Program-made: the position numbers and the translations under genes
Shown here: positions 30,273 to 58,068 of the stretch, in pieces
How the letters are laid out: every line of letters starts with the position of its first letter
Position numbering within the stretch: the stretch's first letter is position 1
Virus record (IMG/VR): IMGVR_UViG_3300045988_170943
Span: 224,001-288,000 of that record
DNA from: a virus
Length of the DNA stretch: 64,000 bases
Strand: one strand, 5' to 3'
Notes under the pieces: model-generated
Seen by the model: the letters and a program-made list of their open reading frames with translations, nothing else
Database searches by the model: none
Told to the model about the DNA's origin: nothing

Positions 30273-33200
30273 ATGGTCGCAGAGAACGGCACATTCTACA
30301 TCACCCCAGGTGTAGGTACCAGTACACACAGTGCCGTCAACCGTGCATGGACAAGGGTGGCGTCCACTGTCGCCGTATTCTTCGCGCTCGTCGCCATCAT
30401 ACTGTCCACCATCACCGCCACCCCCCTGGGGCAAGCAACAGCATCCAGCCACACTGCACAAGCCGGAACATTCGGGATCTTCTGCTCAGAGATAATGGGC
30501 AGCAACATGGACTCCCAGGCGAAATGGTACCAGTGGCTCAAGTCCTACCCGGCCTCAGACAAGGATGGCCGTCGTCTCACCGCCCAGGAGGCCCTAGAGA
30601 ACGGGCTTTTCTTTGTCAACTACCATGGCGAAGGTAAAGGTGATTTCCTGGTCAAAGACAAGTCTGACGAATCCTACAAGGAGCACTCTAAGACTGATGA
30701 GGCCAAACTGAAGGCCAGCAGAACTCTCAATAACTGCGCCCTCAACTCTATCGGTGTCTGGACTGCCAATGATCTTCTTGGTATTGCCAACGGGCTGTCC
30801 GGCATCACCCAGTACATTGTGATGCACACGTTCGACTCGAACATGATCTGCTCCGATGCGAAAGACACGACCGGCGACTGTTTCAACATGCTGAAAATCA
30901 TTGGTGGTACAGGAGCAAACGGCCGCGAGTCAGCGAACGCCAACAAAGGCGGAATCATCGGGGCGCTCACCGGGTCACTGTTCTTCCCGCTCGCGTCGCT
31001 CGTATTCATCGCAGTTGGTGTCGGAGTATTCATTAAACTAGCAAAGATGAAAATCCGGGACATCTTCTTCGGTGTCCTGTGGGCGTTCATCGCCTACATG
31101 GTCAGTCTCATCATGCTGCTGAACCCGTCCCTGCTCGCTAAAGCCCCACTGGCAGTATCCAACACAATAGCGTCCTGTGTGATCGGGGCGTTCAGTGGTG
31201 GCGTCTGCGGAACAAACAACTCTGGAACCCTCCAGGAGAACGAATCCACGTCAGACGCCGTTTGTCGTGCGTATGCGAACAACAGCGACCCGTCCAGCGA
31301 CATGCAGATGATCGCTGGGTCGCTCACCTGTAAGATCTGGAAAGCGTTCGTGCTGAACATGTACGCTGAGGGATCTTTCGGGACGGGGTTCGACAACCTG
31401 GACACACTTGACAAGAACAGGCCCACCAATAAAATACTCACCGATGCTGGTCTCAAACCAGAAGACTACTGTGTGAACTTGTACACAGAAAAGAGCATCG
31501 ACAGCCAGAAGAACGGGGTACTCACCACCACCGACAACGGTGACGGAAACAAGATCTGTAACCTAGTCACATACCAGATGTACCTGGAAACCAGCGTGAA
31601 ATCCGGTGAAGACACCCTGCCGGACACAGGGAAGATAGACACCCGCTGGTACGAGGTAATTGACGCGGCAGCCGCCAACAACGGGTTCTGGTCCTCCTGG
31701 TCCGGCAGCATGTCCAGCACGTTCAACAAGAACGGTATCGCCCTCCTTGCCATCTTCGTTGTCGTCCTCGGCGGTCTCGTCCTCATCGTCACATCCCTGT
31801 ACGCCGCCGTCTACTTCATCTCCTCCATTATCCTCATGGCTTTCAGCCCGATCTTCCTGCTCATCGGCATCGACCCTGACAGGGGGCGCAGAATCCTCCT
31901 CGGGTTCTTCCAGAAGGTCGCCACCAACGTGATGAAGTACATCGCGTCCGCTGGGTTCCTCGTCGCCAGCATCGCCATGTATGGGGGCATCCTCGATGAC
32001 ATTGACAGCATCCCCACAACGATCCTGTTCGTTCTACTGATCACCATGGCTCTGCTCATGTACCGTAAGGAGATCATTGACCTACTAGGCAAGGTCAACG
32101 CCAAGGGCGAGGAACTGTCTTCCCAAATGAGTGACAGGCTGGGCCGCACCATGCGGGGTGCCGGTAGTGGCACCACACGTATGCTCAGTGCCGGTGTCGG
32201 TGGCGCGGTCGGCGCGAAGATGGCCGGTGGCACCATGAGGTCCGGGTTCGCTGACGCAGCCAAACGTGACCTTAAGCGCAGCGGCGGCTTCGTCGGTAAC
32301 GTCGCCCGCCAGGTTGACCGCGAGAATGTCGCCAACCGCGGCAAACTCAAGAACAAGGAGCAGGAGGCCAAACAGCAGGAGCGTGACGCCCAGCAGGCAG
32401 CGAAGAACTGGCAGGACGCATCCAGAGGCGCCTCTAAGGAGATCGCCAGCCAGGAGTCCAGGAAGGCCGCCGACCAGAAGACCATTGACCGGCTGGAGGG
32501 CGAGAAGTTCAAGAAGACCCACGCGACCTTCATCGCCCGTAAGGACCTGATCACGGACGCTGAACTACACCTGGAGCGTGTCAACAACAACCCCGAAGCC
32601 ACCATGGATGAGCGGGAGTCCGCAATCTCCAGGCTTGAGCAGGTGCGCGCATTCGTCGAGTTCGAGAACCTTGGTGAGCGTATCGGTGCTTTGGAGAAGC
32701 AAAAGTCAGCCATCAGTGACCCAGCGCAACGTAAAGCCTTCCAGAACCGTATCAACGGACACTACACCAGGATGGACGAGTTGCAAGAACCGTTCGAGGA
32801 GATCGACGGCCGCACCTTTGATGACCTCAGGGGTCAGGTTGCTTTCAACGCTGACAAGGTGGCCGCCAGAGCCAAGTTCGGGTCTGAGCAGCAAGCCGCT
32901 CTTGACAAGGCATACCGCGACCAGGATGAAGCGGACCGCAACATTGACAAGGCGACGGCTGAGCGCGACCTCTACGATCAGCGCGCAGCAGGAGCACACC
33001 GGGAGGCCGCTGAAGCCGGACAACGTGGACGCATGTACGGTGAGATCAACGACCGTAACGCTGCGGCAGCGGGTAGGACCGTCACAGCCAAGAGTATTGA
33101 CAAAGCCGACAAGAAGGTAGCGAAAGCACGCCAGGAGAAAGGCTTCGTATCCAAGGAAACCGCTAAGAAGGACCTGAAGGCTGAACACAAGCGTAACCGT

Positions 33201-33704
33201 GGTAAAACCAAGGTGACCGCAGACGTCCATATCTATGGTGATCAGGACACTGATTTGGACGGCAAGGGGGCGAAGTACGATGCTGACGGCACCGCCATAG
33301 CACCACCAAAACGCTCACGCAGACGACGTGCTGACAGCAGCAGGAGGCCATCATCACCGTCTCCCGTAACTCCGCCAAGCGCATCAACACCCGAACTGCC
33401 CGCACTGGATCTACCGCCTATCAGTGGCACAAGTGAGTCAGAATCACAGTCCAAGCCAACGACTGAGGACAAGCCTACCAGGAGGCAGAGGAGCGTGCCG
33501 TCGCCGGACAGGATGCCTGACTCACCCCCTACCCCGAAGCCAACACCGGAGAGGAAACCAGAACCCACCCCGACGCCACCGCCTGCACCCCAGGAAAAGC
33601 CAGTAGCAGACACAAGAACCAGAGAAGAGGTGAACCCACCAATGCGTAGACCACGGCCACCACGACCGAATCTTCCCCCAAGAAAGCCTCGTGACACCAA
33701 GTAA
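30273..33704 (+). CDS. giant polytopic membrane protein, paralog 1 of 3; candidate VirB6/TrbL-like channel component
   Basis: N-terminal signal anchor and a large extracytoplasmic domain containing CKIWKAFVLNMYAEGSFGTGFDNL ... TRWYEVIDAAAANN. This is followed by a block of 5-6 TM helices and a long Lys/Arg/Glu-rich coiled-coil tail ending in a Pro-rich tract. The same motif and architecture occur in ORFs 50578 and 54907. Confidence 0.55.
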   Translation: MVAENGTFYITPGVGTSTHSAVNRAWTRVASTVAVFFALVAIILSTITATPLGQATASSHTAQAGTFGIFCSEIMGSNMDSQAKWYQWLKSYPASDKDGRRLTAQEALENGLFFVNYHGEGKGDFLVKDKSDESYKEHSKTDEAKLKASRTLNNCALNSIGVWTANDLLGIANGLSGITQYIVMHTFDSNMICSDAKDTTGDCFNMLKIIGGTGANGRESANANKGGIIGALTGSLFFPLASLVFIAVGVGVFIKLAKMKIRDIFFGVLWAFIAYMVSLIMLLNPSLLAKAPLAVSNTIASCVIGAFSGGVCGTNNSGTLQENESTSDAVCRAYANNSDPSSDMQMIAGSLTCKIWKAFVLNMYAEGSFGTGFDNLDTLDKNRPTNKILTDAGLKPEDYCVNLYTEKSIDSQKNGVLTTTDNGDGNKICNLVTYQMYLETSVKSGEDTLPDTGKIDTRWYEVIDAAAANNGFWSSWSGSMSSTFNKNGIALLAIFVVVLGGLVLIVTSLYAAVYFISSIILMAFSPIFLLIGIDPDRGRRILLGFFQKVATNVMKYIASAGFLVASIAMYGGILDDIDSIPTTILFVLLITMALLMYRKEIIDLLGKVNAKGEELSSQMSDRLGRTMRGAGSGTTRMLSAGVGGAVGAKMAGGTMRSGFADAAKRDLKRSGGFVGNVARQVDRENVANRGKLKNKEQEAKQQERDAQQAAKNWQDASRGASKEIASQESRKAADQKTIDRLEGEKFKKTHATFIARKDLITDAELHLERVNNNPEATMDERESAISRLEQVRAFVEFENLGERIGALEKQKSAISDPAQRKAFQNRINGHYTRMDELQEPFEEIDGRTFDDLRGQVAFNADKVAARAKFGSEQQAALDKAYRDQDEADRNIDKATAERDLYDQRAAGAHREAAEAGQRGRMYGEINDRNAAAAGRTVTAKSIDKADKKVAKARQEKGFVSKETAKKDLKAEHKRNRGKTKVTADVHIYGDQDTDLDGKGAKYDADGTAIAPPKRSRRRRADSSRRPSSPSPVTPPSASTPELPALDLPPISGTSESESQSKPTTEDKPTRRQRSVPSPDRMPDSPPTPKPTPERKPEPTPTPPPAPQEKPVADTRTREEVNPPMRRPRPPRPNLPPRKPRDTK

Positions 33705-33760
33705 ACCAAGACCCCTATTAGCAGCCGGAGAATAGCCGCCACCAGGAGAAGAAACCCAAC

Positions 33761-35665
33761 ATGAGTGACAACTGGGAAGCCCCCAAGACTACCGACCCGG
33801 AGTTCGGCTATGAGCCTGATGCTGTAGCCGACAGCGAGGTGTACCCAGATGAAACTCAGTATCTCGACGGTGGCGGCATCCCCGGCCGCGATATGCCCGA
33901 GATCCGTTCTGCCCCAACGTTCATGCCTGGGACGAGCCGCAACATTGACCCCAGGGCTGAGCAGAACTCCGATCTAGAAAAGGGCAGTGACTCACCAAAG
34001 GGAGACGGTAGCCACCCCAGCAACCCAGGGGGCCAGAGGGGCAAGTCACACGGAAACAACGGAGACCCCAACAGCAAGCCCCCAGTAGGTACCCCTAGTG
34101 ATGGAGGTTCCAGCGAAGGAGACGGAGAAGGTAAAAGCGGCGACGACCCTAAGTCAGGTGGAGGCAAGGGCCGCGGTGGCGTCAAAGGTGTAGCCGGGAA
34201 CCTCGCAAAGAGTGCAGCCGCCCATGCCGTACCAGAGAAGGCGGCAGAGACAGCGGCAAAAGCCGCAGAGACCGCGCGGCGTGTCCAGTCGGCAGTCCAC
34301 ACAGTCGTCCACTCTGTGCAGGGCGCTGTCGCTGTCGTCATAAACCCTGTCTCATGGATCATCCTAGCGGCAGCCGTCATTATCACCGTGGTGTCTCTCG
34401 CCGTGACCTCATCCATGATGGTGATCGGCCGTAATGAGAACGCAGACGGGTGCTTCGGTATCGGCGGTGACGCGAAAAGCGGGCGAGGCATCCTTGGTAT
34501 CGGGTCAGCGATTCAGGGCGCCAAAGACAAGGTAGACCAGGAGGGAGAGGACTGGACCCAGCGAGGCAACCAGGCTGGTTCGTGGCTCATGTCCCAGAAG
34601 TGGGAATTCCTGGGAGGTAAGGGCATGTCCCGCGAGCAGGCCGCTGGCATCCTCGGTAACTTCATCCAGGAGTCCGGCCTGAAGTATGCTCGCGCCGAGA
34701 TGAAAGGCCCAAACGCTGACGGCTCACTAGACCATATGTCAAATGAGCAGGCGGATGCCTTCACAAAGGACAACGCACCGGCTGGTCTTGGTCTGGCTCA
34801 GTGGACGTGGAACCCTGGGCGCGCTAAGACCCTCCTGGACCTGGCGAAGAGCATGGGGAAAAACTGGTACGATGCCGAGGTCCAGTTGACCATGATCAAG
34901 AACGAGGTTGACTCCTCTTACGGGCAGCGTCTCCTCGCGGCAGGCTTCAACGACCAGGGTAAGTCTGAGAAGGATCTGGCACTCATCTTCCACGATGTCT
35001 ATGAGGGCTCCGCAGACGGTGCTCAGGGACTCAAGGAGCGTCAGGACAGTGCCAGCGAGTTCCTGTCAAAGTTCACCGGGTCCGCGGGTCTCCCCAGCAG
35101 TGACGGCGGCGGGTCATGCAGCCGCGGTGGAGGTACAGCAGTAGGTGGAGGCAAAGACAACATCGTCAAGTTCGCCATCTCTATCGCCTACCCCACCAAA
35201 GAGGAGTCGAAGTGCCCTGAGCCTCGTGGATACTCCTGTGCCCCTCAGGCGTACAAAGACGCTAAGCACAAGATGGAAGGGCAGACTGGTGCTGACCCAC
35301 TGGACCTGTGGGCCGACTGCGGTCGTTTCGCCGCCACCGTCGTAAAAAACACGGTTGACCCAGAGTTCCCGTGGGGGCCGACAGGAGAACAGTACAGGTA
35401 CGCCTCATCATCCCCGAAGTGGCAGGCCTATAATGACTACAGCCAGCGCCAGCCAGGCGACATCTTCATCACGAAACCCGAGTATGTGGGCCACATCTTC
35501 GTGTACCTGGGACAAGTTGATGGCGTGGAGAAGATCGCTGAGGCTTCCATGGAAGAGCGCGTGGGTGGCGTTGGAGAGTTCTACCTGAACTCCTCCCTCA
35601 CTGAGGACTACGCAGTAGGTGGTGCACACAGGCAATTCACGGGATTCCACTACGTGGGCAGCTAA
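33761..35665 (+). CDS. cell-wall hydrolase with a lysozyme-like glycosidase domain and an NlpC/P60 (CHAP-like) peptidase domain; VirB1-like hydrolase associated with the transfer module
   Basis: One TM segment (WIILAAAVIITVVSLAV). The lysozyme-like block is GMSREQAAGILGNFIQESGLKY...GLGLAQWTWNP. The C-terminal Cys/His papain-like block is CGRFAATVV...GDIFIT...VGHIFVYLG. ATG with an aggagaag RBS. Confidence 0.65.
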   Translation: MSDNWEAPKTTDPEFGYEPDAVADSEVYPDETQYLDGGGIPGRDMPEIRSAPTFMPGTSRNIDPRAEQNSDLEKGSDSPKGDGSHPSNPGGQRGKSHGNNGDPNSKPPVGTPSDGGSSEGDGEGKSGDDPKSGGGKGRGGVKGVAGNLAKSAAAHAVPEKAAETAAKAAETARRVQSAVHTVVHSVQGAVAVVINPVSWIILAAAVIITVVSLAVTSSMMVIGRNENADGCFGIGGDAKSGRGILGIGSAIQGAKDKVDQEGEDWTQRGNQAGSWLMSQKWEFLGGKGMSREQAAGILGNFIQESGLKYARAEMKGPNADGSLDHMSNEQADAFTKDNAPAGLGLAQWTWNPGRAKTLLDLAKSMGKNWYDAEVQLTMIKNEVDSSYGQRLLAAGFNDQGKSEKDLALIFHDVYEGSADGAQGLKERQDSASEFLSKFTGSAGLPSSDGGGSCSRGGGTAVGGGKDNIVKFAISIAYPTKEESKCPEPRGYSCAPQAYKDAKHKMEGQTGADPLDLWADCGRFAATVVKNTVDPEFPWGPTGEQYRYASSSPKWQAYNDYSQRQPGDIFITKPEYVGHIFVYLGQVDGVEKIAEASMEERVGGVGEFYLNSSLTEDYAVGGAHRQFTGFHYVGS

Positions 35666-35754
35666 CAGGGGCAGGATATACTGTCGAAAAAGAAGCCACG
35701 CCTTTGTGGGACAGTTGCACGCACTTTTTACGAACGACCCAGGGGGATTCACGC

Positions 35755-36654: not shown

Positions 36655-36718
36655 CCAGAAAACCTATACCCCCACACACAGGGCACCACCATTCAGAAGC
36701 AACGAAGAGAGTTCACTT

Positions 36719-37540: not shown

Positions 37541-37571
37541 CAGTCAGGTTCAATCACTGAAGGAATCTAGC

Positions 37572-38120: not shown

Positions 38121-38227
38121 TAGTGCACCCCGACCGGCCAACAACTCACGGAAGAGCCAGTCAGCCAAGGGGACACTCGCCCAACACTATCTAGAGTGAA
38201 AGACACGAAAAGGGGACATGAGGACAC

Positions 38228-39470: not shown

Positions 39471-39655
39471 ACAGATCGCTCCGGGTAGGAGAGCAGCCTC
39501 AAAGGTCAGCGGTCAACACTCGTCGTTAGGGTACTGCTGGTTGCGTTCACACCTAGCCTGTTGCTGGCTAACGTGTCGATATTTGGCGGGCACTTTAACA
39601 CGGGTGTAGCCATAATTGACAAAAATACGAGGCTTAGCAACAACAAGAGGTGACA

Positions 39656-40600
39656 ATGGCTACCTACCAGTACCTTACCCGCGAGCAGGAACTAGCCTAT
39701 GGGCGCCAGGTCCAGGCCATGCTGAAGGTGAAGAAGGATGCCGAAGGTGAAGGCATCGACCTGGAAAAGTTACAGCAAGGTCCAGTCAACAAGATCAAGG
39801 ACCCAGAACTCAGGAAGATACGCACCATCCTAGATGACGGGAACCGTGCAGCAGAAGCACTCATCGAAGCGAACACTGGACTCGTCATCGACAGGGCCAA
39901 GAGATTCAAGGAAGCATACCCTTCCGCACCTGACCTCGAAGACATCATCCAGGACGGGAAAGCCGGGCTAGTGCGGGCAGTGTGGAAGTACGACCCCAGC
40001 CGCGGACTGAAGTTCTCCACAATGGCTGTCCCATGGATCTTCCAGTCCATCAGCAGGTCAGCGAACCAGGTCAGCCGCCCTATCAGGCTACCAGAGAACC
40101 GTGTCGATCAGTTGTCCAAGATCATGCGCATGCGTAAGGATTACGCCGACACCGGAATGCGCATGAAGGAGATCGATCAGGAGATCATGCAGAAACTTGG
40201 CCTGTCCAAGGAAGTGTTCGACTCCATCGTCCACGCTTCTGTCCCACTGGTGTCACTGAATGTGGAGATCAGGGATGGCGACACTCATAAGGAACTGGGA
40301 GACCTCATCAACCTCGGCCAGGAGCCATCCGTGGAGGAGCGATTCGAGCAGACTGCGATGAGCCGGGAACTCACCTCTGCGATCCTCTCACTGGGGGACA
40401 TGAACGCAGACATCATCGCCGCAGCATTCGGCATTCACCTCCCTGGCCGGGCGCTAATGCGACCCAAGGATGCGAAGACTAAGTGGCACATATCCAACAA
40501 GACGTATGCGATGCGACTTAAGGCAGCAGTTGAGGCACTAAGGCAGGTGCTCTCATCTAAGGGGCTCACATACTTGGACCTGGCCGCTGCCGCCCAGTAG
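39656..40600 (+). CDS. sigma-70 family RNA polymerase sigma factor
   Basis: Region 2 is LIEANTGLVIDRAKRF...DLEDIIQDGKAGLVRAVWKYDPSRGLKFSTMAVPWIFQSISRS (cf. [37 protein letters not shown]). Region 3 and a region-4 HTH are also visible. ATG at 39656 with an aagagg RBS. Confidence 0.8.
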   Translation: MATYQYLTREQELAYGRQVQAMLKVKKDAEGEGIDLEKLQQGPVNKIKDPELRKIRTILDDGNRAAEALIEANTGLVIDRAKRFKEAYPSAPDLEDIIQDGKAGLVRAVWKYDPSRGLKFSTMAVPWIFQSISRSANQVSRPIRLPENRVDQLSKIMRMRKDYADTGMRMKEIDQEIMQKLGLSKEVFDSIVHASVPLVSLNVEIRDGDTHKELGDLINLGQEPSVEERFEQTAMSRELTSAILSLGDMNADIIAAAFGIHLPGRALMRPKDAKTKWHISNKTYAMRLKAAVEALRQVLSSKGLTYLDLAAAAQ

Positions 40601-43676: not shown

Positions 43677-43797
43677 TATCCACACAATCACCAGGGGCAC
43701 CTACAACGAGTTCACAGGCAACTTGGGGTGCCCCTGTGTACGTGTCGGTAACATGAACATGCCCCCGCACATACTATAGGTGTTTAGAGAACCCCGC

Positions 43798-46101
43798 ATG
43801 AGCATTAGCCTGAGAAGCGTTGAACTGTCCAACATCCGCCACCACAAGCACTTCATGTTCAAGCCCGCTGACACTGGAGTCACCACCATACGTGGGGCCA
43901 CCGGGGCAGGTAAGTCCAGCATCGTTGACTCTGTAGCCTGGACCCTGTTCGGAACCAAGCCGCGAGGGGTCACAAAAAACAGTGCCATCATGCGAGATCA
44001 GGCCATCTGGGGGGAGGATAAGTTCTACGCCCGCATCACCCTCAACGTGGACGACACTGTGATGATGGTGGAGCGACGCATCGTTTCCAAGACCGGGACC
44101 GTCGAGTGCGACGTATGGGAGACACCCCAAAACACGTACACTGGTGACGACAGTGCGTTCACTGACGACACACACAAGGCCGGGGCGTCCGTCACCAGTG
44201 CTGAATCCTACATTAGGTCCAGGATCAAGATGGATGCGAAAGGGTTCCTCGCCGCCGTCCTCGTCCAGCAGAAGCAGGTAGACTCCCTTGTCACGGCCAG
44301 CCCCACGGAGCGGGCACAGGTCATTGAGAAACTGACCGGAATCTCCGCCGTTACCCTCGCCCTAAAGAAAGCCAGAGAGGTCAGCAGCGAGCACAAGAAA
44401 ACACTCGCCTCAACAAACGTTGACGAAAAGCGGTCCGTTGAACTACACCAGCAGGCAGACGCCCTCAACAAGGAGATCACCGCCCTCACTGACTCCCTCT
44501 CCAAACAGGAGAAAAGATGCCAGGACGCCAGAACCAAGCACAAGGAGGCAGAGCAGGAGTATACGCACCTGAGTGACCTGTATGAGCAACAGGAAACCAA
44601 GGTACGCAAGGTCAACGAGAACACCGCCCTCATCAAGTCTCTACAAGCCGACCTGGCGGACATCATCAACCAGAAGAAGGACCTCAAATCCACCATGCGG
44701 GCAGCGGCGGGGGCATCAGTTCCACCAGCGGCCAAAGTCTGGCAGGAGATGATCGACACCCAGTCGTCCTTGTCCGCTGCACGGTCCAGGCATGCCGACC
44801 TCGCCAACAGTATCGCCACCTGGGAGTCCGAGGCCCAGCAAGTCAGTGACACCATGACCACGACAGGTGTCACCACCATACAAGACGCCGAACAGGCCAA
44901 GGCAGAGCACACCGCCAAGGTAGAAGACCTTAAAGCCCAGTCTCACCAGCATGTCGCCGACGGGAAAGCCCTGGAGACCGAGATCACCAAACTACGTAAA
45001 GCCATCACCGCCCTCACCGATGGGGAAGGCACATGCCCCACCTGCCTCCAGAAGGTTGACGCCATCAACACCGTCCTGGCGAAACTTAACCAGGAAGTCT
45101 CCGACGCGGAACAGAAGATCGAACACTACCGTGACCTATACCGGCAGACCGCGACAGCCATCAAGGAGGAGACCAGTCAAGTAGAAGCCCTGAACGAAGC
45201 CATTAAGGCTGTCCACGACCAGGAGGCCCTGACTCAACAAATCAGCCAAGCGAGGACACAGGTCGCCTCTCTGGCTGGACAGGTGAGAGCACTGGAGGCA
45301 CAGGTAGAGTCCACCCGCAAGGTACTCGCCACAGCCGAGGAGAACGAGACCCAGAAAACCAGGTACGACGAACTGGCGGCCAGGGGCCTACACATCTCAG
45401 ACCGGATTGAAGCCCTGGAGAAGGAACTCGACGACATCAAAACCACCACCAGCGGAGGCCCTAACGTCACCCTGAAAAAACTCGCCACACTCAGAGGTAA
45501 GGTAGACACGATGGCAACCAAGGCTCACGAGGCCGACATGAGACGACTCGAAACCCAGTCGCAGATCAACGTCGCTCAGGAACGATCCAGGTCTATCCAG
45601 GTGCAAGCCCAGCAGGTTGACGCTGAGATCGCCAAGTACAAGGACATGCTCACCCAGGTGGAGGAGGCAGTCACCACCACCAATGTCGTCGAAAGGTTCC
45701 GCGAGACCCGCATCGAGGACTCTGTGCCAGTCATCGAGGAGTACGCATCTGACCTGATCTCTAGGTTTACGTCAGGGAAGTTCGTGCGCCTAGAGATGGA
45801 TAAGAAGTTCAACGCCACTGTGGTCCTCGCCGACGGCCGCAGACGCCCAGTAGGAATGCTGTCCGGCGGAGAGATGTCAGCAGCAGCCATCGCCCTCAGA
45901 GTCGCCATCTCCATGCTACTCAACCAAGGCACCAGCCAGAACCTCATCATCCTCGACGAGGTTCTAGTCTCCCAGGACTACACCCGCGCTGAAGCCATCA
46001 TCGAGACTATCCGAGAGATCTGCAAAGGCCAGATCGTCCTCATTGCCCACAACGACTCCATTGACGCACACAGCGACAAAGTGGTCGAAATAACCCCGTA
46101 A
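43798..46101 (+). CDS. Rad50/SbcC-like SMC-family ATPase with a zinc hook
   Basis: Walker A TIRGATGAGKSSIVDSV at the N-terminus and a long central coiled coil containing a CxxC zinc-hook (GEGTCPTCLQKV). The C-terminal ABC signature LSGGEMSAAAIALRVAI is followed by D-loop LIILDEVLVSQD. Confidence 0.7.
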   Translation: MSISLRSVELSNIRHHKHFMFKPADTGVTTIRGATGAGKSSIVDSVAWTLFGTKPRGVTKNSAIMRDQAIWGEDKFYARITLNVDDTVMMVERRIVSKTGTVECDVWETPQNTYTGDDSAFTDDTHKAGASVTSAESYIRSRIKMDAKGFLAAVLVQQKQVDSLVTASPTERAQVIEKLTGISAVTLALKKAREVSSEHKKTLASTNVDEKRSVELHQQADALNKEITALTDSLSKQEKRCQDARTKHKEAEQEYTHLSDLYEQQETKVRKVNENTALIKSLQADLADIINQKKDLKSTMRAAAGASVPPAAKVWQEMIDTQSSLSAARSRHADLANSIATWESEAQQVSDTMTTTGVTTIQDAEQAKAEHTAKVEDLKAQSHQHVADGKALETEITKLRKAITALTDGEGTCPTCLQKVDAINTVLAKLNQEVSDAEQKIEHYRDLYRQTATAIKEETSQVEALNEAIKAVHDQEALTQQISQARTQVASLAGQVRALEAQVESTRKVLATAEENETQKTRYDELAARGLHISDRIEALEKELDDIKTTTSGGPNVTLKKLATLRGKVDTMATKAHEADMRRLETQSQINVAQERSRSIQVQAQQVDAEIAKYKDMLTQVEEAVTTTNVVERFRETRIEDSVPVIEEYASDLISRFTSGKFVRLEMDKKFNATVVLADGRRRPVGMLSGGEMSAAAIALRVAISMLLNQGTSQNLIILDEVLVSQDYTRAEAIIETIREICKGQIVLIAHNDSIDAHSDKVVEITP

Positions 46102-46159: not shown

Positions 46160-47404
46160 ATGAGCCTGTCACCACAGTGGCGCAACGTCATGGAGGCACT
46201 GTCCGACCCAGCCGTCTCCGAGGTGACAGCAAACGGGCCAGACTCATTCTTCGTATCCAGGGGCGGCACCCGCTACCACATGAAAGACGTCACCTTCAAA
46301 GACGTCGATGACTACATGCAGCAGATCGGCGAAAACCTCATCCCACTGGTCCGATCAGCACACGACTGGGACCCAAACGGCATCCTCTACGAAGGCTACC
46401 TGAGCGCCCGCATCCATGGAAAAAAGGTCGCGGGCCGGTGCACCATCGTCCTCCCCCCAGCCTGCCTGACCGCCCAGATCTGCATCACTAACCGTGTCGC
46501 CTCCCTCACCACCCTGGAAGACATCGCCAGCACCGGGTCCATGAGCACCGAGATGCTGGACTTCATCAAGGCGGCCGTAGACAGCGACCTCACCATCGCC
46601 GTCAGCGGATCCACAGGTGCCGGGAAGACCACCCTCATGGAAGCCTGCACGAAACGGTTCTCCAACACGTCAAGAATCGGTGTCGCTGAGGACATGCCCG
46701 AACTACACCTTGTCCAACCGAACGTCTCCTACCTTAACTCCGTACCCTGGAAACCCGGAATGAAGGAAGAAGAATCCGTGTCCCTGACCTGGGTCGTCCA
46801 ACAGTACCAGCGACTCAGGGTCGATAAGGTGATCGTTGGTGAGGTTCGCGGCAAGGAGTTCGCCGACTTCCTCATCGCCGCGAACTCCGGTCTGGGCGGC
46901 TCCATGATCACCCTCCACGCCGAAGATCCCCAGAACTGCCTAAACAAGATGACCGAGTTCGCGCTCGCCGGTGCACCAGGCAGGCCCATCAAGTCCATCA
47001 ACTCATCCATAGCGAACACCATCGACATCATCATCCAAATGGTCAAGACCCAGGACAAACGCAGACGGGTCTCACACATCCAGCAAGTCACCAGAACCGT
47101 GTCCGACGGCCCGGACGCCAAGATCGTCAGCGCACCCCTCTATTTGTGGGACAAGGAAACAGACACGTTCAGTAAGGCCGGGAACATAGAGGACGCCCTC
47201 AGGCAGAAGATGACAGCCCACGGCATCGACGTCCAAAGGTTCCTCACCTCAGAGATCGGCGCCAGATACCCCTCCCACGGCACAGTCGGCGGCATCACCC
47301 CACACAACAACACCATGCCTGCACCCACACCGGCCCCCGCAATGGGGACACCCGACACGAGTAGCACACAGCCCTTTCCAAGAGTCAGGCGCAGAACCAT
47401 ATGA
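46160..47404 (+). CDS. type II/IV secretion system ATPase (CpaF/TadA/VirB11 family)
   Basis: Walker A TIAVSGSTGAGKTTLM, Asp box IGVAEDMPEL and Walker B RVDKVIVGEVRGKEF, with a His box LGGSMITLHAED. Confidence 0.8.
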   Translation: MSLSPQWRNVMEALSDPAVSEVTANGPDSFFVSRGGTRYHMKDVTFKDVDDYMQQIGENLIPLVRSAHDWDPNGILYEGYLSARIHGKKVAGRCTIVLPPACLTAQICITNRVASLTTLEDIASTGSMSTEMLDFIKAAVDSDLTIAVSGSTGAGKTTLMEACTKRFSNTSRIGVAEDMPELHLVQPNVSYLNSVPWKPGMKEEESVSLTWVVQQYQRLRVDKVIVGEVRGKEFADFLIAANSGLGGSMITLHAEDPQNCLNKMTEFALAGAPGRPIKSINSSIANTIDIIIQMVKTQDKRRRVSHIQQVTRTVSDGPDAKIVSAPLYLWDKETDTFSKAGNIEDALRQKMTAHGIDVQRFLTSEIGARYPSHGTVGGITPHNNTMPAPTPAPAMGTPDTSSTQPFPRVRRRTI

Positions 47405-48498
47405 CAGCACCAGTGGTAGCGTACGCAGATGACTATAGGCTCACCGTCGAGAGCCTGAGATTCTACGTACCCGCATTCCACCAAGGGGAAGAAGCCGAAC
47501 GCATACTCGTCGAATCAGGTGACACACTCCACCCACAGGAACGCAACCGCCTGGAGGTGCAGGCTCGCCTCAAAACCTTAGCCGTAGCGAAGATCGAGTC
47601 CATGTGCAAGCCTCTCATCGTGAGGGAGATCAACAAACTCATCAATGGCTCCCACCTCAGAGGCAACGACGACCTGTTTAACATCCTCTACGAGACCGGC
47701 GTCAAAGTCGGCATGATCAAGGGCCTAAGGCACTTCGACGTCAACAAGATCCAGGCCGGAGCCACAAACTACCTATTCCAGTGGATCGTCACCTATGCCA
47801 GGAAAGAGTTAGCAACCCATGAGGCCACCTTCGGTATCGCCCCATCCAGGTTCCAGAAACTCAAGAAAGTGTCCGCCGTCCGCAAGAAGATAACAGAACA
47901 GTTAGGTAGGTACGCCACCAACCAGGAAGTACTAGACTACTTCCATTCCGGGAAGGCCGACATCAAGACAATGGCCGGGAGACTCAACGCCCCCAACAAA
48001 GGGTACGCCTCCAACAAGGCAATCACCATGGACCTTGTTCAGGAGCAGGAGAAGTTCGAGAAGACCATGGCCTATGTGCAACTCCTCGACCCCCTGGAAG
48101 ACTACCAGCGACAGTTAGACCAGGCCGTCCACCCACCTAAGCCCTTCAACGAGACCATCTTCGGGGCCTTCAACGACACCCACCCCATGACCGACCAGGC
48201 TGTCGCCGTCCTCATGAGTGAACTGGGCAACTACACAGACATGACCCCACAGGTGAGACACGAACTGGACGCCATGACCAAGAAAGAGTACCGGGCCACC
48301 CTCAAACGCATCACAGAGATGGCTACCGACCCACACGGCCCTTTCCAGGCGTTCATCCGCGCTAACGCCGCCACCCTGGACGCCGGATGGGACTACATGG
48401 TGGGCGAGGAAAACAACAGCACTACAGACAAGGTGCGTGCACGATACACGGCAGCACTGTTCCCGCACGGACTGGAAACACGCACAGGAGAACACTAA
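47401..48498 (+). CDS. divergent sigma-70-family-like protein (second, phage-type sigma candidate)
   Basis: DLFNILYETGVKVGMIKGLRHFDVNKIQAGATNYLFQWIVTYARKEL aligns with sigma region 2.2-2.4 (DLIQEG.IGLMKAV.KFD...G.KFSTYA.WWIRQAI). A region-3-like IAPSRFQKLKKVSAVRKKITEQLGR follows. The start overlaps the upstream stop (ATGA). Confidence 0.45.
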   Translation: MTAPVVAYADDYRLTVESLRFYVPAFHQGEEAERILVESGDTLHPQERNRLEVQARLKTLAVAKIESMCKPLIVREINKLINGSHLRGNDDLFNILYETGVKVGMIKGLRHFDVNKIQAGATNYLFQWIVTYARKELATHEATFGIAPSRFQKLKKVSAVRKKITEQLGRYATNQEVLDYFHSGKADIKTMAGRLNAPNKGYASNKAITMDLVQEQEKFEKTMAYVQLLDPLEDYQRQLDQAVHPPKPFNETIFGAFNDTHPMTDQAVAVLMSELGNYTDMTPQVRHELDAMTKKEYRATLKRITEMATDPHGPFQAFIRANAATLDAGWDYMVGEENNSTTDKVRARYTAALFPHGLETRTGEH

Positions 48499-49201: not shown

Positions 49202-49426
49202 ACACAAAACGAAGGAAAGCCACGAGCCCGCAACACAGTCATTCAGGGTGGGTCCAAGACCAAGAAACCAGGTCAAGGTCCCGCCCTGAAACACACATAA
49301 ACAACACAGCAAGGTAGAATCACCATCAGAGATTAAACACCACACAAACACATGGGGGCAGGCGTGGCAGTCACAAAACCAGCACCAGAAAACACTCTCC
49401 TCGTCAGAATCGACCTTGGGGTGAGC

Positions 49427-49861: not shown

Positions 49862-49915
49862 TATTCGCATTATCTGCCTAATGCCCCTGCCACACGTGAG
49901 ACAAGGACCCCGAGA

Positions 49916-50455: not shown

Positions 50456-50577
50456 AACCAGGCCAGTAATACAGTAGGATAGTCCCAGCAAAAACGCATG
50501 ATACTGGGGAACAAAAACTAGCGGCAGCGATATTTTTCCCCTGAGTTCTCAAAGACCCACAAGGGGAAACGGCCGTA

Positions 50578-53500
50578 ATGAATCTAGCATTTCTGACAGG
50601 AAACGCACCCACGCCAGGGACACACTACCTTACAGGTGACGTCCAAGTGACCACCTGCAAGAGGAGCGCCCTGAAAGCCGTCACCCTTACCGCCGTCACC
50701 GTCATCATGCTCATTGGCCTCATCACACAGGCCATCACAGGTGGAGCAAGCAACCCGCTCACCAACAACCAGAACACCACGGCCGGAACCACTGCGCTAG
50801 CCGATGACGAATCCGACGCCAAGAAAGAAATCAAGGGCTTATCCGACAGTTACATCCAGAAGGACGAGGACGGAAAACCCAGCCTGTTCAACACCATCAA
50901 CAAGGCTGACGGGGAAGACTCACCAAACGACTTCGGCTACATTATGCGCCGACTATTCTCCACCGGATACATCAACCATGCCGGGGACGCAACCAACGAC
51001 GGCCGACAGGACAACTGCTACGTATCCCAATCTGGCACCCCCTACTACCACAACTGCGACGTACCCAACTTCATGACCGAGGCGTTACAGTCATTCATGG
51101 ACCCGTTCATCACCACCGGGCCACAGAACGCCGAGATCCGTAAAGCCAAAGGCGGGCTACTGTGGGTGTTTGACGGGATCCCCGACTCAGAGACCCTACC
51201 TGACGCCGGACCGGCTGTTGACGAGAACGCCCGGTCTGCTAAGTACACTGGCCTCGAAATCTTCGGATACAACCTCAACTACACCACCTACTTGGGCGAG
51301 TGGGACAACATCAAAGTGATGACCGCCGCCAGATCCCTGTCCAACTTCGGGTTCATGGACAGTCTCAAACTCGGCGCCACCGCCGTCATCAAAGGTGTCG
51401 CCAACGGTGTAGGCAACGCAGCATCCGGGTTTGTCAACAGGATCAGCACTGGTAACATCCTGGGCGCTGTCGGTGGACTTTGGTCCGACTTTGTGGGAGG
51501 ATCCTCGGCCGCAGTCGTCAAAGTCGTCATGGACACGTCCGACCAGAATGTCTTCAACAACTGGGCATGGTACCGGGTCGGCTACGGGTCTACACTTTAT
51601 AATGCCCGCGAACTCACCGCCGAAGAGACAGCCGCACAAGCAAAACGCGCCCTGTACAACATGATCCTCGGATCCCAACCGGACGCGGCCACGGCACCCC
51701 AGGAACTCAAAGACCTTAAGAAACCGGCTGCACCTGCCGATGAGACCTCCAAGTGCGTTATCCGCGTCAACGGGAAAGCCACAGAGCAGAAGAACGCCTC
51801 CGACAACGGTATCACAGAAGGCGACTGCAAACTTCAGGCGAACACGGCAGCCCCAGACGGAAAAGCCCACAAGGTTAACACCCCCAATGACCTGAAGAAA
51901 GACGGCGACTACGCCTGGAAGAAAGACGGCACCAGCAAACGCCAGACCCTCAAGGAATGGGTCGCCGCCAACCAGGCCACCTTCAACACCGCCAAGAAGT
52001 ACGGCATGTCCATCAACACTGATGGGGACGAGTCCAAGCGTGACGAAGTAGCCCAGAAAATCCTCTCCGAGTGGGACCGCGAGTATTCCAAGGCTCTCCA
52101 AAACTCCACCGCCAAAGAGGCAGAAGCCAAAAACAGCGAATGGGTGAACCAGTTACTCGGCACCGCAGCATTCGCCGCGCACATCCTGTCCAACCCGTCC
52201 CAAAGTTACAATGCTCCGTGGTCCCGGTTCGCCTGCACCAACGCGGACGGCACCGACATGCATGAAGACAACGGCACCCTCGTCATGCTCATGGACTCTG
52301 ACGGCAACATGAACCCCAAATGCTCCGGGGTGCGTCCACCTATCCAGGACGGGCTCTTCGGTAACGGCTACACAGGCGACGCCAAGAACCAGGTTGGTAC
52401 AGACACGCGCCGAGCGCGCCTCAACACCAACGTGCTCGCAAATCTGATCCCCCTCGACTCAGCATTCGACAGTGTGGCAGCGTTCTGGCTAGGTGTCGCC
52501 ACCACCTCCACCATGGTATCCAACGAGGTCATGTCCTGGGCATTCAGCCCACTCCTGTCCCAACTCGGGATCACAGACATCGTGGTCAACACCATCAAGT
52601 TCATGCGAGACAGCATCTTCTTCCCACTCGCAGCGATCATGGTGGCGTTCGGCGCATTCATGGCCCTGTGGAACCTCGCCAGGAAAGGCAACGCGAAAGA
52701 AACCATCATCACACTGTGCCTCATCATCGCAACCTTCGCAACCGGGGTAGCCCTCCTACAATCACCAGGCCGCACCGTCAAAGCCATAGACACCATCCCC
52801 TCCATGGTTGAACAAACCATTGTTGGGTACATATTCTCCGCCAACAATGAGCCAGTAGACCAGTTGTGCACGGCATCAGGAACTGTGTCAACCAAGGCAG
52901 GCACCGGCCTAGAAGATGAGCAACTACCATTCACCCCATCTGAAGGCACCAGGTCTCTCATGTGCGAGAACTGGCGAACCTTCGCGTTCAACCCATGGGT
53001 GTACGGCCAGTGGGGGACAGGCTACCACAACCTGTACGCCAACGGCAGCGGCAAGGACGGGGCGTGGGACAACAAGAACAGCAGTATTGTCGGTGACGCC
53101 GCAGTCCCCCTAGGTAACAACATCAGCGAAAAGAACTGGGGACTCTACCAGTTGCGTGCCACCACATCCGGCACCGCCTACTACACGGACCAGTCCAACC
53201 CGACAGGCCGCATCAACCGGGACTTCTACAGGATCGTTGACGCCCAGGCAGGCCCCAGCAACGCAGCCAACTCCTACCCACGGTACTTCAACACGTGGAG
53301 CGGAACCAACCTAGCCCCGCGTGCTGGAACAGCCATGCTCGGCGGCATCATTGGTGTACTCGGAGCATACACCGTCATCGTCTACTCTGTGACTAAAGTG
53401 CAGGTCACGTTCATCGTCACCATGCTGCTGCTCATCATGCCGCTCATGCTGCTCATGGGGATCCTCCCATACTTTGGGACTGGGAAACTACGCCGTTACT

Positions 53501-54717: not shown

Positions 54718-54762
54718 GTCATTGCGTCCCGCGCCTACTGGAGTGCGGGACGCAATGACTCA
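54717..54762 (+). terminator. perfect 17-bp hairpin abutting the stop codon of paralog 2 (intercistronic structure or terminator)
   Basis: gagtcattgcgtcccgc / gcgggacgcaatgactc with a 12-nt loop. No U-tract follows. Confidence 0.35.
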
Positions 54763-54906
54763 ACCATGCAACTAGGGACAGAAAAAGGAATCTAGAGGAA
54801 AACTGTCAGAGGCACTGTGGTTCCCCCACTCCGCCCCTATTGTGGCGCTACTTGCAGGGATATTTCAACGTTAGTCACTTTACGTCGATCATGAGGATGT
54901 TTCTAC

Positions 54907-57900
54907 ATGATTCTCAGGCATATGCAGCCGCAAGGGGCATCCTACATGACCCCGAACGGTGCGGGTAGGGCACATGACGGTGCCGGGCACAAGCGCACCA
55001 TTGTCGCCACCGTCATGGTAATGCTGTCTGTCCTCATGCTCACCTTCGCTGGCCTGTCCACTGCTGTCAACGTGCGTGAGAAGCAACAGGTGCAGGCTGG
55101 GGACTGGACTCAGTGGCTCATGTGTGAAGTACTACCAGAGTCAGCGAAGGAACTCTACCAGTTCAGCCAGTCGAAGGACCTCCAGTTCCATCTTCGCTCA
55201 AAGTCAGCAATCACTGGTGGAATTGATGACGTGGACGGTGGCCTGAACTGGATGCTGTCTGGCAGTAGCGGCACAGACTTCAAGAAGGTCAATGAGGAGA
55301 TCCTGGGGTTCAGTCTCGACCCAGAAAGTGACGGGCAGTCTCAACCGAACCAGCAGTCAGGTAGCCAGCAAGACCAGAAGCAGGCTGGAGATCAGAAGAG
55401 CGGGGACGGGAAGACTCCCACTGGTGGCAAATACGTCAACCCATACGACCGGTTTGGTGTCGCTGGGATGAAGTTCAGTGCCTACCAGGGTGAGTGGAAG
55501 TACTTCGTTATCGATGCCTGCAAAAAGGACGGGGAGCCGAACGACCCGAAAGCCGGGCTGTTCTATGACAGTCGCCTGGAACCGCGTAGCGGCTGGGAAG
55601 ACATTGGGAACTCCAAGGATGTGCGCACCCAGCAGTTCCAGGCTAACCCATCCGCACCTATTCTCGCCACGGCCCTGAACAGTGTCGCCAACGGGCTATT
55701 CAACATCACGAAACTTATCGTCAGTGTCACTATCGCATTTGTTGGGTTCTCATTCTCTGACATCGTACACACCATGGGGCTCGATAACGTTATCGGCGGC
55801 CAGTCGGGCATGTTCAAGAACCTGTTCAATGGTGTGTTCATGCCACTGGTTGTCTTCGCGTTCCTCACGACCGGGGGCTATCTCATCTACAATGGGGTCT
55901 ACAAGGGGCGTTACCGTGAGTCATTCAACTCGGTAGCAAGATCGTTCCTGATCTTCGCTATCGCCATTGTTGTCGGCATGCACCCGGCACAGGCAATGAC
56001 ACTACCGAACAAAGCCATCGTATGGTTCCAGTCCGTGGTCGTCCTGAGCCTCAACAGTCAGATCGCGGGCGGAGACGACATGTGTGCAACTGACATCGGC
56101 CAAGTCAACTCCAAGATCATCGAGTCTCAGGGGAAGAGTGAGCAAGGGGTCCTGGATGAGGCCGCCCAGAACATCCGGTCAGTGGTCAGTTGCCGAATGT
56201 GGCAGGTCCTCCTCCTCAAACCATGGGCGGAAGGACAATTCGGCACCGACATCAATAACCTGTGGGCCAACGGCAACAAGCCAGGGTGGGCGCCAGAGAA
56301 CGCACAGGAACTCGGCAACAGTAACAACGACATGGTTGGCAGCGCGGAAGTCCCCCTGGGTGAAGGCAAAAGCATCCACAACTGGGGCATATACCAGATC
56401 TCCACGCAGACCAACGCGCACTGGGTCACATCCGGTAACGGCACCAGGGTGAAACCAATCAACGGTGTTGCTGGGGACTGGTACCGGATTGTTGACGCTC
56501 TTGCTAACTATGATGAGGAGGACGCCAAGGAGAAGCCATCCGACAACGCTGAAGAGATTACGTACAAGGTCCCTAAGGAGTCCAATAAGGTCAGTCCTTA
56601 CTGGGATGCGTGGGTGGGGAATAGCGTCGCCAGCAGGTACACGTCCGCCTTGTCCTCCATCCTGGTAGCCGCCCTGGTGTGCGCATCTATGGCCCTGTTT
56701 GCCGGGTGGGCGTCCGTGTACACGATAGGTCTGGCTATACTCCTTGGTTTCGCGCCCCTGTTCATGCTTCTGGCCTGTTGGGCAGGTAGAGGCTGGGAGA
56801 TTTTCAAAGGGTGGGCAGAACTCACAGTTAAGACCGGGCTCAGTCGCATCGTGGTTGGGATACTGCTTGTCTTCAACATTCTCATTGTCAACAACATCCT
56901 AAATATGGCGAACACCCTGTCCTGGGGGAAGATGATCACCCTTCTGATGATCCTTACCGTCATCATGTTCAAGGGGCGTGAGAAGATCACTGAGATGTTC
57001 GCTGCCGTCCAGTTCGGTGGCGTGAACATGGCCTCCACGGCCAGCAGAGTCACCGACCGAACCAAGAACATTGTTATGGCGCCAGTTAAGACATCTGGTC
57101 GTTTCGCAACCAGCGCCGTGGGTGGCGGTGTTGGGGCGAGGCGCGAGGGCGGGTCGTTCATGCGTGGCATGGGTGCTGGCGCGGTCCAGGAGTTTAAAAA
57201 CATGACCTACCGGTCCGGGATGCTCAGGGACGCGAGAACAACCTATGACACGCACGCCGCTGCCGCCGGGAAGAAAGGCGTCCTCGTGTCTGAGATGAAC
57301 TGTGCCGTATGTGGTAAGCCACTCGACTATGAGCAGAATCAGTACGGCACCCAACAGTTCATTGGCGGCCGCGACCGGAACGGTAACCTCGTGTGCCGCG
57401 AGTGCCTTGAAGACGGCATGGGTGACGATGTTCAGGAGGTCACATTCAACCGTCCGACCGCTGCACAGAGGCGCGACGCCAGCAAGAGCAAGGACGCACA
57501 ACGCAAGAAGATCCGAGAGAGTTACAACAAGCGGTTCACTGACGACACAGCCGGTCGAACTGTAGCCGAGAATACGGCCAGCGGAATCCATGACATGCGC
57601 AACGAGGACTTGAACACCATTGCGGGCAGGGAGAATCGTGCAGAGAACGAGGCTAAGTTGCGTGCCGCCATGAGTATGGTCCACCAAGACGTTTATGCTC
57701 ACAAGTCCGCCAAAGATTACAGTCGAGACAAAAAGAAAGACCCCAGGACGATAACCACCACAAAACTCCCCAAGGAGATCGACGGGATCGTAGACAAGGA
57801 CGCCCTCCAGGAAGCGTGGATGAAACAGGACTACAACTATGTGATCATGACCTATGTGTCAGCCTGGATTGTCTGGTATCAGCAGAACACAGGCGTCAAG

Positions 57901-58068
57901 TACAGTGCCGACATCAACTCCACCTACTATGCTGTCAAGAACAAGAACCTGGAGGCATTCGACAAGGCCGAGTACCATCGCATCATGGATGAGGGTAAAA
58001 CAAGACGAGCCGACGCTAAGGCAAAGAACCAGGCCCCAAGTGGCGGCGGCAGTGAGGATAAGGAATGA
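54907..58068 (+). CDS. giant polytopic membrane protein, paralog 3 of 3 (VirB6/TrbL-like candidate) with a C-terminal CxxC-X22-CxxC zinc ribbon
   Basis: The conserved block is CRMWQVLLLKPWAEGQFGTDINNLWANG...VGSAEVPLGEGKSIHNWGIYQI...DWYRIVDALAN. A TM block and charged tail follow, containing CAVCGKPLDYEQNQYGTQQFIGGRDRNGNLVCRECL. Confidence 0.55.
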   Translation: MILRHMQPQGASYMTPNGAGRAHDGAGHKRTIVATVMVMLSVLMLTFAGLSTAVNVREKQQVQAGDWTQWLMCEVLPESAKELYQFSQSKDLQFHLRSKSAITGGIDDVDGGLNWMLSGSSGTDFKKVNEEILGFSLDPESDGQSQPNQQSGSQQDQKQAGDQKSGDGKTPTGGKYVNPYDRFGVAGMKFSAYQGEWKYFVIDACKKDGEPNDPKAGLFYDSRLEPRSGWEDIGNSKDVRTQQFQANPSAPILATALNSVANGLFNITKLIVSVTIAFVGFSFSDIVHTMGLDNVIGGQSGMFKNLFNGVFMPLVVFAFLTTGGYLIYNGVYKGRYRESFNSVARSFLIFAIAIVVGMHPAQAMTLPNKAIVWFQSVVVLSLNSQIAGGDDMCATDIGQVNSKIIESQGKSEQGVLDEAAQNIRSVVSCRMWQVLLLKPWAEGQFGTDINNLWANGNKPGWAPENAQELGNSNNDMVGSAEVPLGEGKSIHNWGIYQISTQTNAHWVTSGNGTRVKPINGVAGDWYRIVDALANYDEEDAKEKPSDNAEEITYKVPKESNKVSPYWDAWVGNSVASRYTSALSSILVAALVCASMALFAGWASVYTIGLAILLGFAPLFMLLACWAGRGWEIFKGWAELTVKTGLSRIVVGILLVFNILIVNNILNMANTLSWGKMITLLMILTVIMFKGREKITEMFAAVQFGGVNMASTASRVTDRTKNIVMAPVKTSGRFATSAVGGGVGARREGGSFMRGMGAGAVQEFKNMTYRSGMLRDARTTYDTHAAAAGKKGVLVSEMNCAVCGKPLDYEQNQYGTQQFIGGRDRNGNLVCRECLEDGMGDDVQEVTFNRPTAAQRRDASKSKDAQRKKIRESYNKRFTDDTAGRTVAENTASGIHDMRNEDLNTIAGRENRAENEAKLRAAMSMVHQDVYAHKSAKDYSRDKKKDPRTITTTKLPKEIDGIVDKDALQEAWMKQDYNYVIMTYVSAWIVWYQQNTGVKYSADINSTYYAVKNKNLEAFDKAEYHRIMDEGKTRRADAKAKNQAPSGGGSEDKE

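Follow-up and report, generated by a model that had tools for sequence, protein, structure and literature searches.

Three deeply diverged VirB6-like paralogs of a putative monoderm-type type IV secretion system in a giant element catalogued as a virus

Introduction

What are the three giant, mutually related membrane proteins encoded by an element that is filed among viruses, and which machinery do they serve? The question is raised by a 64,000-nucleotide stretch of IMG/VR record IMGVR_UViG_3300045988_170943 (positions 224,001 to 288,000; hereafter the window, numbered from its first nucleotide), in which three open reading frames (ORFs), here named P1, P2 and P3 in the order of their position, encode proteins of 1053–1379 aa and span 28 kb (Table 1). 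A first-pass annotation made from the sequence alone had recognized a common signature, suggested a relationship to VirB6/TrbL, and proposed a distinct family of envelope-spanning translocons. The evidence presented here indicates that P1–P3 are probably three anciently diverged VirB6/TrbL subunits, of the extended kind, belonging to a type IV secretion system (T4SS) of monoderm type (Tcp-like, MPF_FA-like).

Results and Discussion

Three paralogs with a common architecture

All three ORFs are intact and located on the plus strand at the positions given by the first-pass annotation, and their translations contain each motif as given there: TCKIWKAFVLNMYAEGSFGTGFDNL...RWYEVIDA in P1, MCENWRTFAFNPWVYGQWGTGYHNLYANG...VGDAAVPLG...NWGLYQ...DFYRIVDA in P2, and SCRMWQVLLLKPWAEGQFGTDINNLWANG...VGSAEVPLG...NWGIYQ...DWYRIVDA in P3. 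The shared stretch is real, but its length had been underestimated at about 100 aa. Pairwise BLASTP alignments, each at 24% identity, extend over 485 aa for P2 and P3 (E = 2e-28), 562 aa for P1 and P3 (E = 1e-32), and 388 aa for P1 and P2 (E = 3e-17), and the family profiles align with each other at a probability of 100% (E = 1.9e-56 and 2e-62; 492–538 columns). Similarity so far beyond chance marks P1, P2, and P3 as true paralogs, as judged from their sequences.

According to hydropathy scans and AlphaFold models, the paralogs share one layout. Each would start with a signal anchor (N-terminus inside), which is followed by an outside domain, a transmembrane (TM) hairpin of two helices linked by a short K/R loop, a Cys/Trp-rich central loop of ~190–207 aa that carries the signature, a second hydrophobic block, and a charged tail. 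In P1, the anchor (aa 29–47) precedes an outside domain of ~190 aa, the TM hairpin (236–282), the central loop (296–487), the VirB6/TrbL hydrophobic block (488–605), and a charged tail (606–1143) that ends in a Pro-rich tract. P2 has the largest outside domain (630 aa), located between its anchor (aa 31–49) and TM hairpin (679–727), followed by the central loop (728–919), the VirB6 block (920–1030), and the charged tail (1031–1379). In P3, the anchor (aa 32–50) and an outside domain of ~200 aa are followed by an amphipathic helix plus TM hairpin (249–366), the central loop (367–573), the VirB6 block (574–700), and the tail (701–1053). The block behind the loop comprises 3–4 long hydrophobic helices, and the proteins have at least five helices, as is typical of polytopic VirB6/TrbL proteins. 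Loops of 190–207 aa, N-terminal domains of 190–630 aa, and tails of 350–540 aa add large hydrophilic domains to this core, which is the hallmark of extended VirB6 proteins. The models were computed from the family alignments and have pLDDT values of 72.6 (P3) and 74.3 (P2, residues 1–1200).

The architecture outlined by the first-pass annotation thus contains the right parts in the wrong order: the signature lies between two hydrophobic blocks and not N-terminal to a single block of 5–6 TM helices. Its description of the tails holds at the sequence level. They are rich in K/R (16–21%) and D/E (13–17%), the last 135 aa of P1 consist of 28% Pro, and the four Cys residues of the CxxC...CxxC zinc ribbon in P3 are invariant across 28 orthologs. 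The charge of the tails, the zinc ribbon, and the presence of three long helices behind the loop in the models suggest, with some uncertainty, that the tails are cytoplasmic; the assignment relies on these features because the number of passes counted from hydropathy is ambiguous.

When 42 proteins from the three families are aligned jointly (P3 numbering), C73, G195, C393, C429, W432, N492, and W569 are invariant, and Y193, E196, P439, G446, Q497, P617, L621, and G629 nearly so. The loop is the region most conserved between the families, and the N-terminal outside domain contributes a second common motif, Y.GE(W), together with an invariant Cys. The outside domain of P2 (aa 50–678; window positions 50725–52611) has family-invariant residues of its own (C147, H158-N159-C160-D161, E227, G240-E241-W242-D243, D319, N324, W331, and R333). 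It has no Pfam or PHROG match and no specific fold match; its H/C/D cluster could be catalytic.

A divergent branch of the VirB6 superfamily

Orthologs of all three paralogs exceed the gathering score of the Pfam family TrbL/VirB6 (PF04610; 25.9 bits). The scores are 27.9 and 36.4 bits for the P3-type proteins P0042 and P0048, 26.2 bits for the P2-type protein P0155, and 31.7 and 29.1 bits for the P1-type proteins P0077 and P0082; the matches always fall on the second hydrophobic block. In the P3 family, 14 of 28 members match PF04610 at E <= 0.01. The fold of a solved VirB6 protein was recovered by Foldseek, in which chains of TrwI made up eight of the nine best matches (probability 0.97–1.0) and were matched over 228–231 of 261 residues. 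A joint profile of the three families aligns with TcpH of pCW3 over 336 columns (hhalign; 97.7%, E = 1.7e-12), which places the TcpH segment TLWGNFVQQPWVMLEFDG, containing VQQPW, onto the start of the signature (C..W..F.L.PW..GQFGT). The VQQPW segment is reportedly essential in TcpH; in P1, M363 replaces the Pro of the W...PW core.

The Pfam scores of the orthologs, the TrwI matches, and the profile alignments, including that with TcpH, place P1–P3 in the VirB6 superfamily, apparently as a divergent and enlarged branch ("extended VirB6") that is closest to the TcpH type. They bear out the relationship to VirB6/TrbL suggested by the first-pass annotation, and the proposed "distinct" translocon family becomes a branch of a known superfamily. 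Because the W...PW core aligns with VQQPW, the signature would be only partly new, its start representing the counterpart of the TcpH motif. Apart from the VirB6 matches, the shared block has no match to any Pfam, PHROG, or PDB family, which speaks against a generic domain such as an adhesin repeat. A search of PDB sequences with the P3 family profile returned nothing relevant, the relationship to VirB6 structures being visible by fold comparison only; the PHROGs hold no family for P1, P2, P3, or the coupling and TcpC-family proteins encoded in the window; and the Tcp proteins of pCW3 show no BLAST-level similarity, with nothing significant in tblastn searches against the window.

Among known systems, TcpH of Clostridium perfringens plasmid pCW3 and the extended VirB6 proteins of MPF_FA systems (700–900 aa; e.g., Orf15 of Tn916; PMC12857230) are of the nearest kind. 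TcpH shares with P1–P3 the anchor, the TM hairpin, an outside loop with W...(VQQ)PW, the VirB6 core, and a long hydrophilic C-terminal tail, and the surrounding genes likewise encode a hydrolase, TcpC-family and TcpF-like proteins, and a coupling protein. However, the TcpH type is a single-copy protein of 700–900 aa encoded in a compact tcp-like operon, whereas the present elements encode three deep paralogs of 1050–1700 aa. Their loop is ~200 aa long compared with ~90 aa in TcpH, which lacks the conserved Cys residues and the motifs GQ(F/W)GT, NW.(L/I)YQ, and (W/F)YR(I/V)VDA, and they have large outside domains of up to 630 aa at the N-terminus.

TrwI/VirB6 of R388 (PDB 7O3V, 8RT9, and 8RTD) and DotA of the Legionella Dot/Icm system (PDB 9NGY), also a very large protein of the VirB6 type, are 7–18% identical to the present proteins. 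They operate in diderm systems that use VirB5/IcmX, VirB7, VirB9, and VirB10, none of which were found here, and TrwI has neither large outside domains nor a long tail. Several giant VirB6 proteins per genome, some in tandem and with large hydrophilic extensions as in P1–P3, occur in Rickettsiales, as illustrated by the four paralogs of Ehrlichia chaffeensis (Bao et al. 2009, in PMC12857230), which were compared by description. By contrast, these are chromosomally encoded effector-secretion systems of Gram-negative, obligately intracellular bacteria, whereas P1–P3 are encoded on a mobile giant element together with a T4SS of Gram-positive type.

Hydrolase domains are inserted into the outside loop

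Peptidoglycan-hydrolase domains act on the cell wall. Several P3-type orthologs carry such domains, and the insertion point in the loop is always the same, directly behind DW(Y/W)RIVDA and ahead of the second hydrophobic block. The inserted domains are Peptidase_M23 in P0013 (aa 592–683) and P0042 (aa 562–651), NlpC/P60 in P0065 (aa 552–646), and Phage_lysozyme2 in a 1144-aa protein (locus L011, 14924–18358). Because these domains reside within the loop of P3-type proteins, the loop and its signature are extracytoplasmic, as claimed by the first-pass annotation; the confinement of the invariant Cys residues to the two predicted outside parts agrees with this topology. Three unrelated hydrolase domains have been found at the same insertion point in different orthologs. 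In the window's own P1, P2, and P3, Pfam detected no hydrolase domain.

An ancient triplication maintained across related elements

Each paralog has its own family of orthologs in metagenomes. Based on the core columns of the 42 members, identity is 0.34–0.38 within families (minimum 0.23) and 0.17–0.19 between families (maximum 0.22), and the nearest neighbor of every member (42/42) belongs to its own family. Since identity within families far exceeds that between them and all nearest neighbors fall into the same family, the triplication is older than the spread of the carrier elements.

The three-copy set is unusual, as the first-pass annotation held, and it is also maintained as such. In IMG/VR, a P2-type gene is located directly upstream of a P3-type gene in 51 of 53 loci, the two exceptions being truncated by contig edges. 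All P1-type loci found (15/15) are on contigs that also bear a P2–P3 pair, at a distance of 20–27 kb and on the same strand; their identities fall into tiers of 97–98%, about 50%, 32–36%, and 27%. The same synteny was found at 27–55% identity on contigs of 337–698 kb, including contigs of 337, 480, and 491 kb and one of 697,643 bp, which is probably circular because it was recorded in two permutations. In one distant relative (locus L010; JGI 3300046047, 491-kb contig, 17225–23183), which encodes a P2-type protein of >2230 aa, the P1-type, hydrolase, HU, GNAT, and P2-type genes all lie within 7 kb; the two sites can therefore form a single cluster. In an exhaustive profile search among 1.84 billion cluster representatives, cutoffs of E <= 1e-3, 1e-10, and 1e-30 yielded 3244, 1580, and 832 members, respectively, and almost none of the members listed has an informative name.

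Gene context in the window

With few exceptions, the genes of the window lie on the plus strand. The first-pass annotation had noted a coupling protein and a cell-wall hydrolase near the paralogs and a context of Gram-positive type; both genes are present and are accompanied by a TcpC-family gene and other T4SS-type neighbors (Table 1), which supports a monoderm-type T4SS. They form a Tcp-like row in the order coupling protein, TcpC, VirB2-like protein, TcpF-like fragment, GmrSD/HNH nuclease, NikA-like, TadE-like, and PIN-PhoH proteins, P1, and hydrolase. The VirB2-like candidate matches TrbC/VirB2 below threshold (E = 0.006). The P2–P3 tandem follows 17 kb downstream of this row, behind genes for an SbcC/SMC-like protein, the T2SSE-family ATPase, HU, and GNAT. 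Every related locus has an ORF of 95–115 aa behind the P3 stop codon; its product in the window is 45% identical to aa 955–998 of P3 (E = 2e-9).

Table 1. Paralogs and other features of the window (positions in the window)
Feature	Position	Strand	Remarks
P1	30273..33704	+	1143 aa; intact ORF; predicted extended VirB6 paralog; TcpH position, directly upstream of cell-wall hydrolase
P1 loop signature	31329..31667	+	C353 to A465; TCKIW...AEGSFGT...WYEVIDA
P2	50578..54717	+	1379 aa; intact ORF; predicted extended VirB6 paralog; first gene of conserved P2–P3 tandem
P2 loop signature	52963..53244	+	C796 to A889; MCENW...NPWVYGQWGT...VGDAAVPLG...NWGLYQ...FYRIVDA
P3	54907..58068	+	1053 aa; intact ORF; predicted extended VirB6 paralog; second gene of tandem
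P3 loop signature	56191..56499	+	C429 to A531; peptidoglycan-hydrolase domains of orthologs inserted just after
P3 tail zinc ribbon	57301..57405	+	CxxC(27)CxxC: C799, C802, C830, C833
97-aa ORF	58065..58358	+	overlaps P3 stop codon; repeats P3 C-terminal module
Type IV coupling protein	18942..21395	+	TrwB_AAD_bind, TraG-D_C; Walker A GGVGSGKT
TcpC-family (VirB8-like) protein	21491..23338	+
VirB2-like candidate	23460..23780	+	106 aa; signal-like segment and two TM helices with KGEPRK loop between
TcpF-like (VirB4 class) fragment	23941..25296	+	weak match, N-terminal half only; without Walker A motif
NikA-like relaxosome accessory protein	26285..27142	+
TadE-like protein	27236–27823
Cell-wall hydrolase	33761..35665	+	Phage_lysozyme2; C-terminal region resembles genes annotated as glucosaminidase-domain; VirB1/TcpG-equivalent position
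T2SSE-family (VirB11/PilB/TadA-class) ATPase	46160..47404	+	kept ~3 kb upstream of P2–P3 in related elements
RIIA-like GHKL protein	8144–10741		jumbo-phage-like
PIN-PhoH protein	28702–30132		jumbo-phage-like
SbcC-like protein	43780–46101		jumbo-phage-like
ThyX-like protein	10871–11950		jumbo-phage-like
Sigma-factor-like protein	39650–40600		jumbo-phage-like
Sigma-factor-like protein	47401–48498		jumbo-phage-like

The T2SSE-family ATPase and the TadE-like protein are kept in synteny despite the Gram-positive type of the T4SS; Gram-positive T4SSs are said to lack ATPases of the VirB11 class (PMC12857230). Downstream of P3, a conserved protein of 699 aa (61241–63340) bears a Walker-A-like sequence, ASADNGKT. 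When checked as a possible half of a VirB4 ATPase, it had no match in Pfam, NCBIfam, PHROG, or the PDB.

A putative membrane platform and its alternatives

The roles of VirB6 and the concept of extended VirB6 proteins (PMC12857230; bioRxiv 10.64898/2025.12.18.695078) suggest how such a set might operate. By analogy with the solved pentamers of TrwI (R388) and DotA (Dot/Icm) and with work on PrgH/PrgF of Gram-positive systems, P1–P3 may oligomerize into a central membrane platform or protochannel, which could nucleate a filament of the VirB2-like candidate pilin and through which the coupling protein would feed DNA. The enlarged outside domains may extend the structure into and across a thick, Gram-positive-type wall, with P3-type proteins often bringing a wall-cutting domain to that very site, and the tails would dock cytoplasmic partners. 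The strict co-retention of all three copies from element to element makes non-redundant roles probable, be it in a mixed assembly or in stage-specific ones; the multiple VirB6 paralogs of Rickettsiales provide a precedent. A more ambitious version, a mixed and stacked VirB6 conduit through the wall of oral Actinomycetota that is equipped with its own wall-cutting modules and allows elements of 340–730 kb to spread by conjugation, is a tentative proposal that we consider improbable at present.

Several observations weigh against the assignment of P1–P3 as VirB6 subunits of a T4SS. P3 itself matches PF04610 below the gathering score (20.5 bits, E = 4.6e-4, aa 563–688), and the Pfam search gave no match to this family for P1 and P2. 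The AlphaFold models are of moderate confidence, and counting hydrophobic segments leaves the number of passes behind the loop ambiguous (four are possible). No complete VirB4 ATPase was found in the window, the only trace being a TcpF match that covers the N-terminal half and lacks a Walker A motif, and no relaxase was identified. For an element that has phage-like genes and is filed as viral in IMG/VR, conjugation is a putative mode of transfer, and the P2–P3 tandem, remote from the Tcp-like row and adjacent to the T2SSE ATPase, might serve another machine. Under such a division, P1 would belong to a conjugative T4SS, and P2 and P3 would supply the membrane core of another apparatus, be it a T2SSE-powered system for secretion, pilus formation, or contact-dependent delivery, or a device by which a huge phage leaves or enters walled cells. 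Besides the distance of 17 kb, the invariable presence of an SbcC/SMC-like gene and the T2SSE ATPase ~3 kb upstream of related P2–P3 pairs is consistent with this scenario, as are the class of that ATPase, the conserved but unassigned genes behind the tandem (encoding the 95–115 aa ORF product, a coiled-coil protein, a protein with five TM helices, and one of ~700 aa), and the phage-like RIIA-like GHKL, PhoH, and SbcC genes of a family listed in IMG/VR. However, all genes belong to a single co-directional array, P1 and the P2–P3 pair always occur on the same contigs, genes for another coupling protein, VirB4, or a VirB8-like protein were not seen beside P2–P3, and locus L010 unites P1-type and P2-type genes within a few kilobases, so that two separate machines seem unlikely.

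The hydrolase domains in the loops of P3-type orthologs and the large outside domains without a fold match would also suit membrane-anchored proteins of wall remodeling or adhesion, whose VirB6-like helices serve as a mere anchor and have no part in translocation. This is very improbable, because conservation is among the strongest in the VirB6 core and in the motif equivalent to that of TcpH, the TrwI fold is matched almost in full, the paralogs of the window have no hydrolase domain, and a separate hydrolase gene adjoins P1. The tandem arrangement of P2 and P3 could suggest duplicates that are recent, redundant, or in decay and have no separate function, but identity between the families is just 17–19%, whereas each family is conserved at 23–96% and has its own invariant residues; with all three ORFs intact and the triple set kept down to 27–29% identity, there is next to no room for this explanation. 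An extended VirB6 set in a monoderm-type T4SS is thus the likely interpretation.

The carrier element and its host

The carriers are elements of 340–730 kb that are catalogued as "huge phages"; the family is filed as viral in IMG/VR, with genomes of up to about 400 kb. The window has a G+C content of ~57%. Sample labels include a human oral metagenome and names of HMP style, so at least some of the elements come from the human mouth. The topoisomerase and the primase are closest to those of Actinomycetota (35–38% identity), a weak hint at a host in this phylum. Jumbo-phage-like genes of the window include DnaG and those in Table 1. Among the latter, the RIIA-like GHKL protein matches phrog_612 with its N-terminal domain only (E = 3.7e-39), PIN-PhoH matches phrog_2765 over the full length (E = 1.8e-65), and the SbcC-like protein matches phrog_77 (E = 1.5e-60); virion genes were not found in the window. 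Al-Shayeb et al. (PMC7162821) regard conjugative transfer genes as a plasmid-like mark, a criterion by which the element would be plasmid-like; it may be a giant conjugative plasmid, a phage–plasmid hybrid, or a huge phage.

Searches with the paralogs gave no match among PLSDB plasmids (DNA and protein) or INPHARED phages (protein), and two scans of 185,579 GTDB species genomes, one by P3 and one by the P3 family alignment, detected no relative, host genome, or integrated copy. Inocles (PMC12340149), which are oral elements of hundreds of kilobases that encode VirB4 and VirD4, were considered and ruled out, since they have 24–32% G+C and reside in Streptococcus, whereas the present element has 57% G+C and an Actinomycetota-like topoisomerase and primase. 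A patescibacterial genome was likewise ruled out by the lack of matches among species genomes, the absence of tRNA genes in the 64 kb, and contigs that recur at ~345 kb. Many oral huge phages of the Oral Phage Database (PMC12297358) are hard to classify, and some are tied to Actinomycetaceae; VirB6 paralogs are mentioned neither there nor in the report on Inocles.

Within the libraries searched, the conserved set of three paralogs, the expanded Cys/Trp loop on a TcpH motif, the repeated insertion of hydrolases, and the family of carrier elements appear to be new. According to a recent review (PMC12857230), extended VirB6 proteins still await the assignment of a role, and the family offers a natural experiment, with three deeply diverged, co-kept copies that have their own invariant residues and a loop that extends the VQQPW segment and has repeatedly captured wall-cutting domains. 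It is large (832 representatives at the strictest cutoff) and marks giant elements of 57% G+C that combine conjugation-type with jumbo-phage-like genes while being filed as viruses. This is relevant to the spread of huge oral elements and to the trust that catalogues of "huge phages" deserve. If the mixed, stacked conduit and its role in conjugation were real, much of the oral "huge phage" catalogue would consist of conjugative giant plasmids or phage–plasmid hybrids with a new T4SS architecture.

Two further observations concern the records themselves. On IMGVR_UViG_3300012642_000011 (437,576 bp), two loci (L032 and L035) are mirror-image matches (54268 + 383309 = 437,576 + 1); the record is probably a palindrome created during assembly, with a true length of about half. 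At the start of the window (1–2000), GC skew is +0.28 and AT skew is −0.30, whereas elsewhere GC skew is negative and AT skew positive; a long ORF (131–1021) lies there on the minus strand, and the remaining ~63 kb form one co-directional array on the plus strand. The start of the window may therefore be a replication origin, a terminus, or a strand-switch point.

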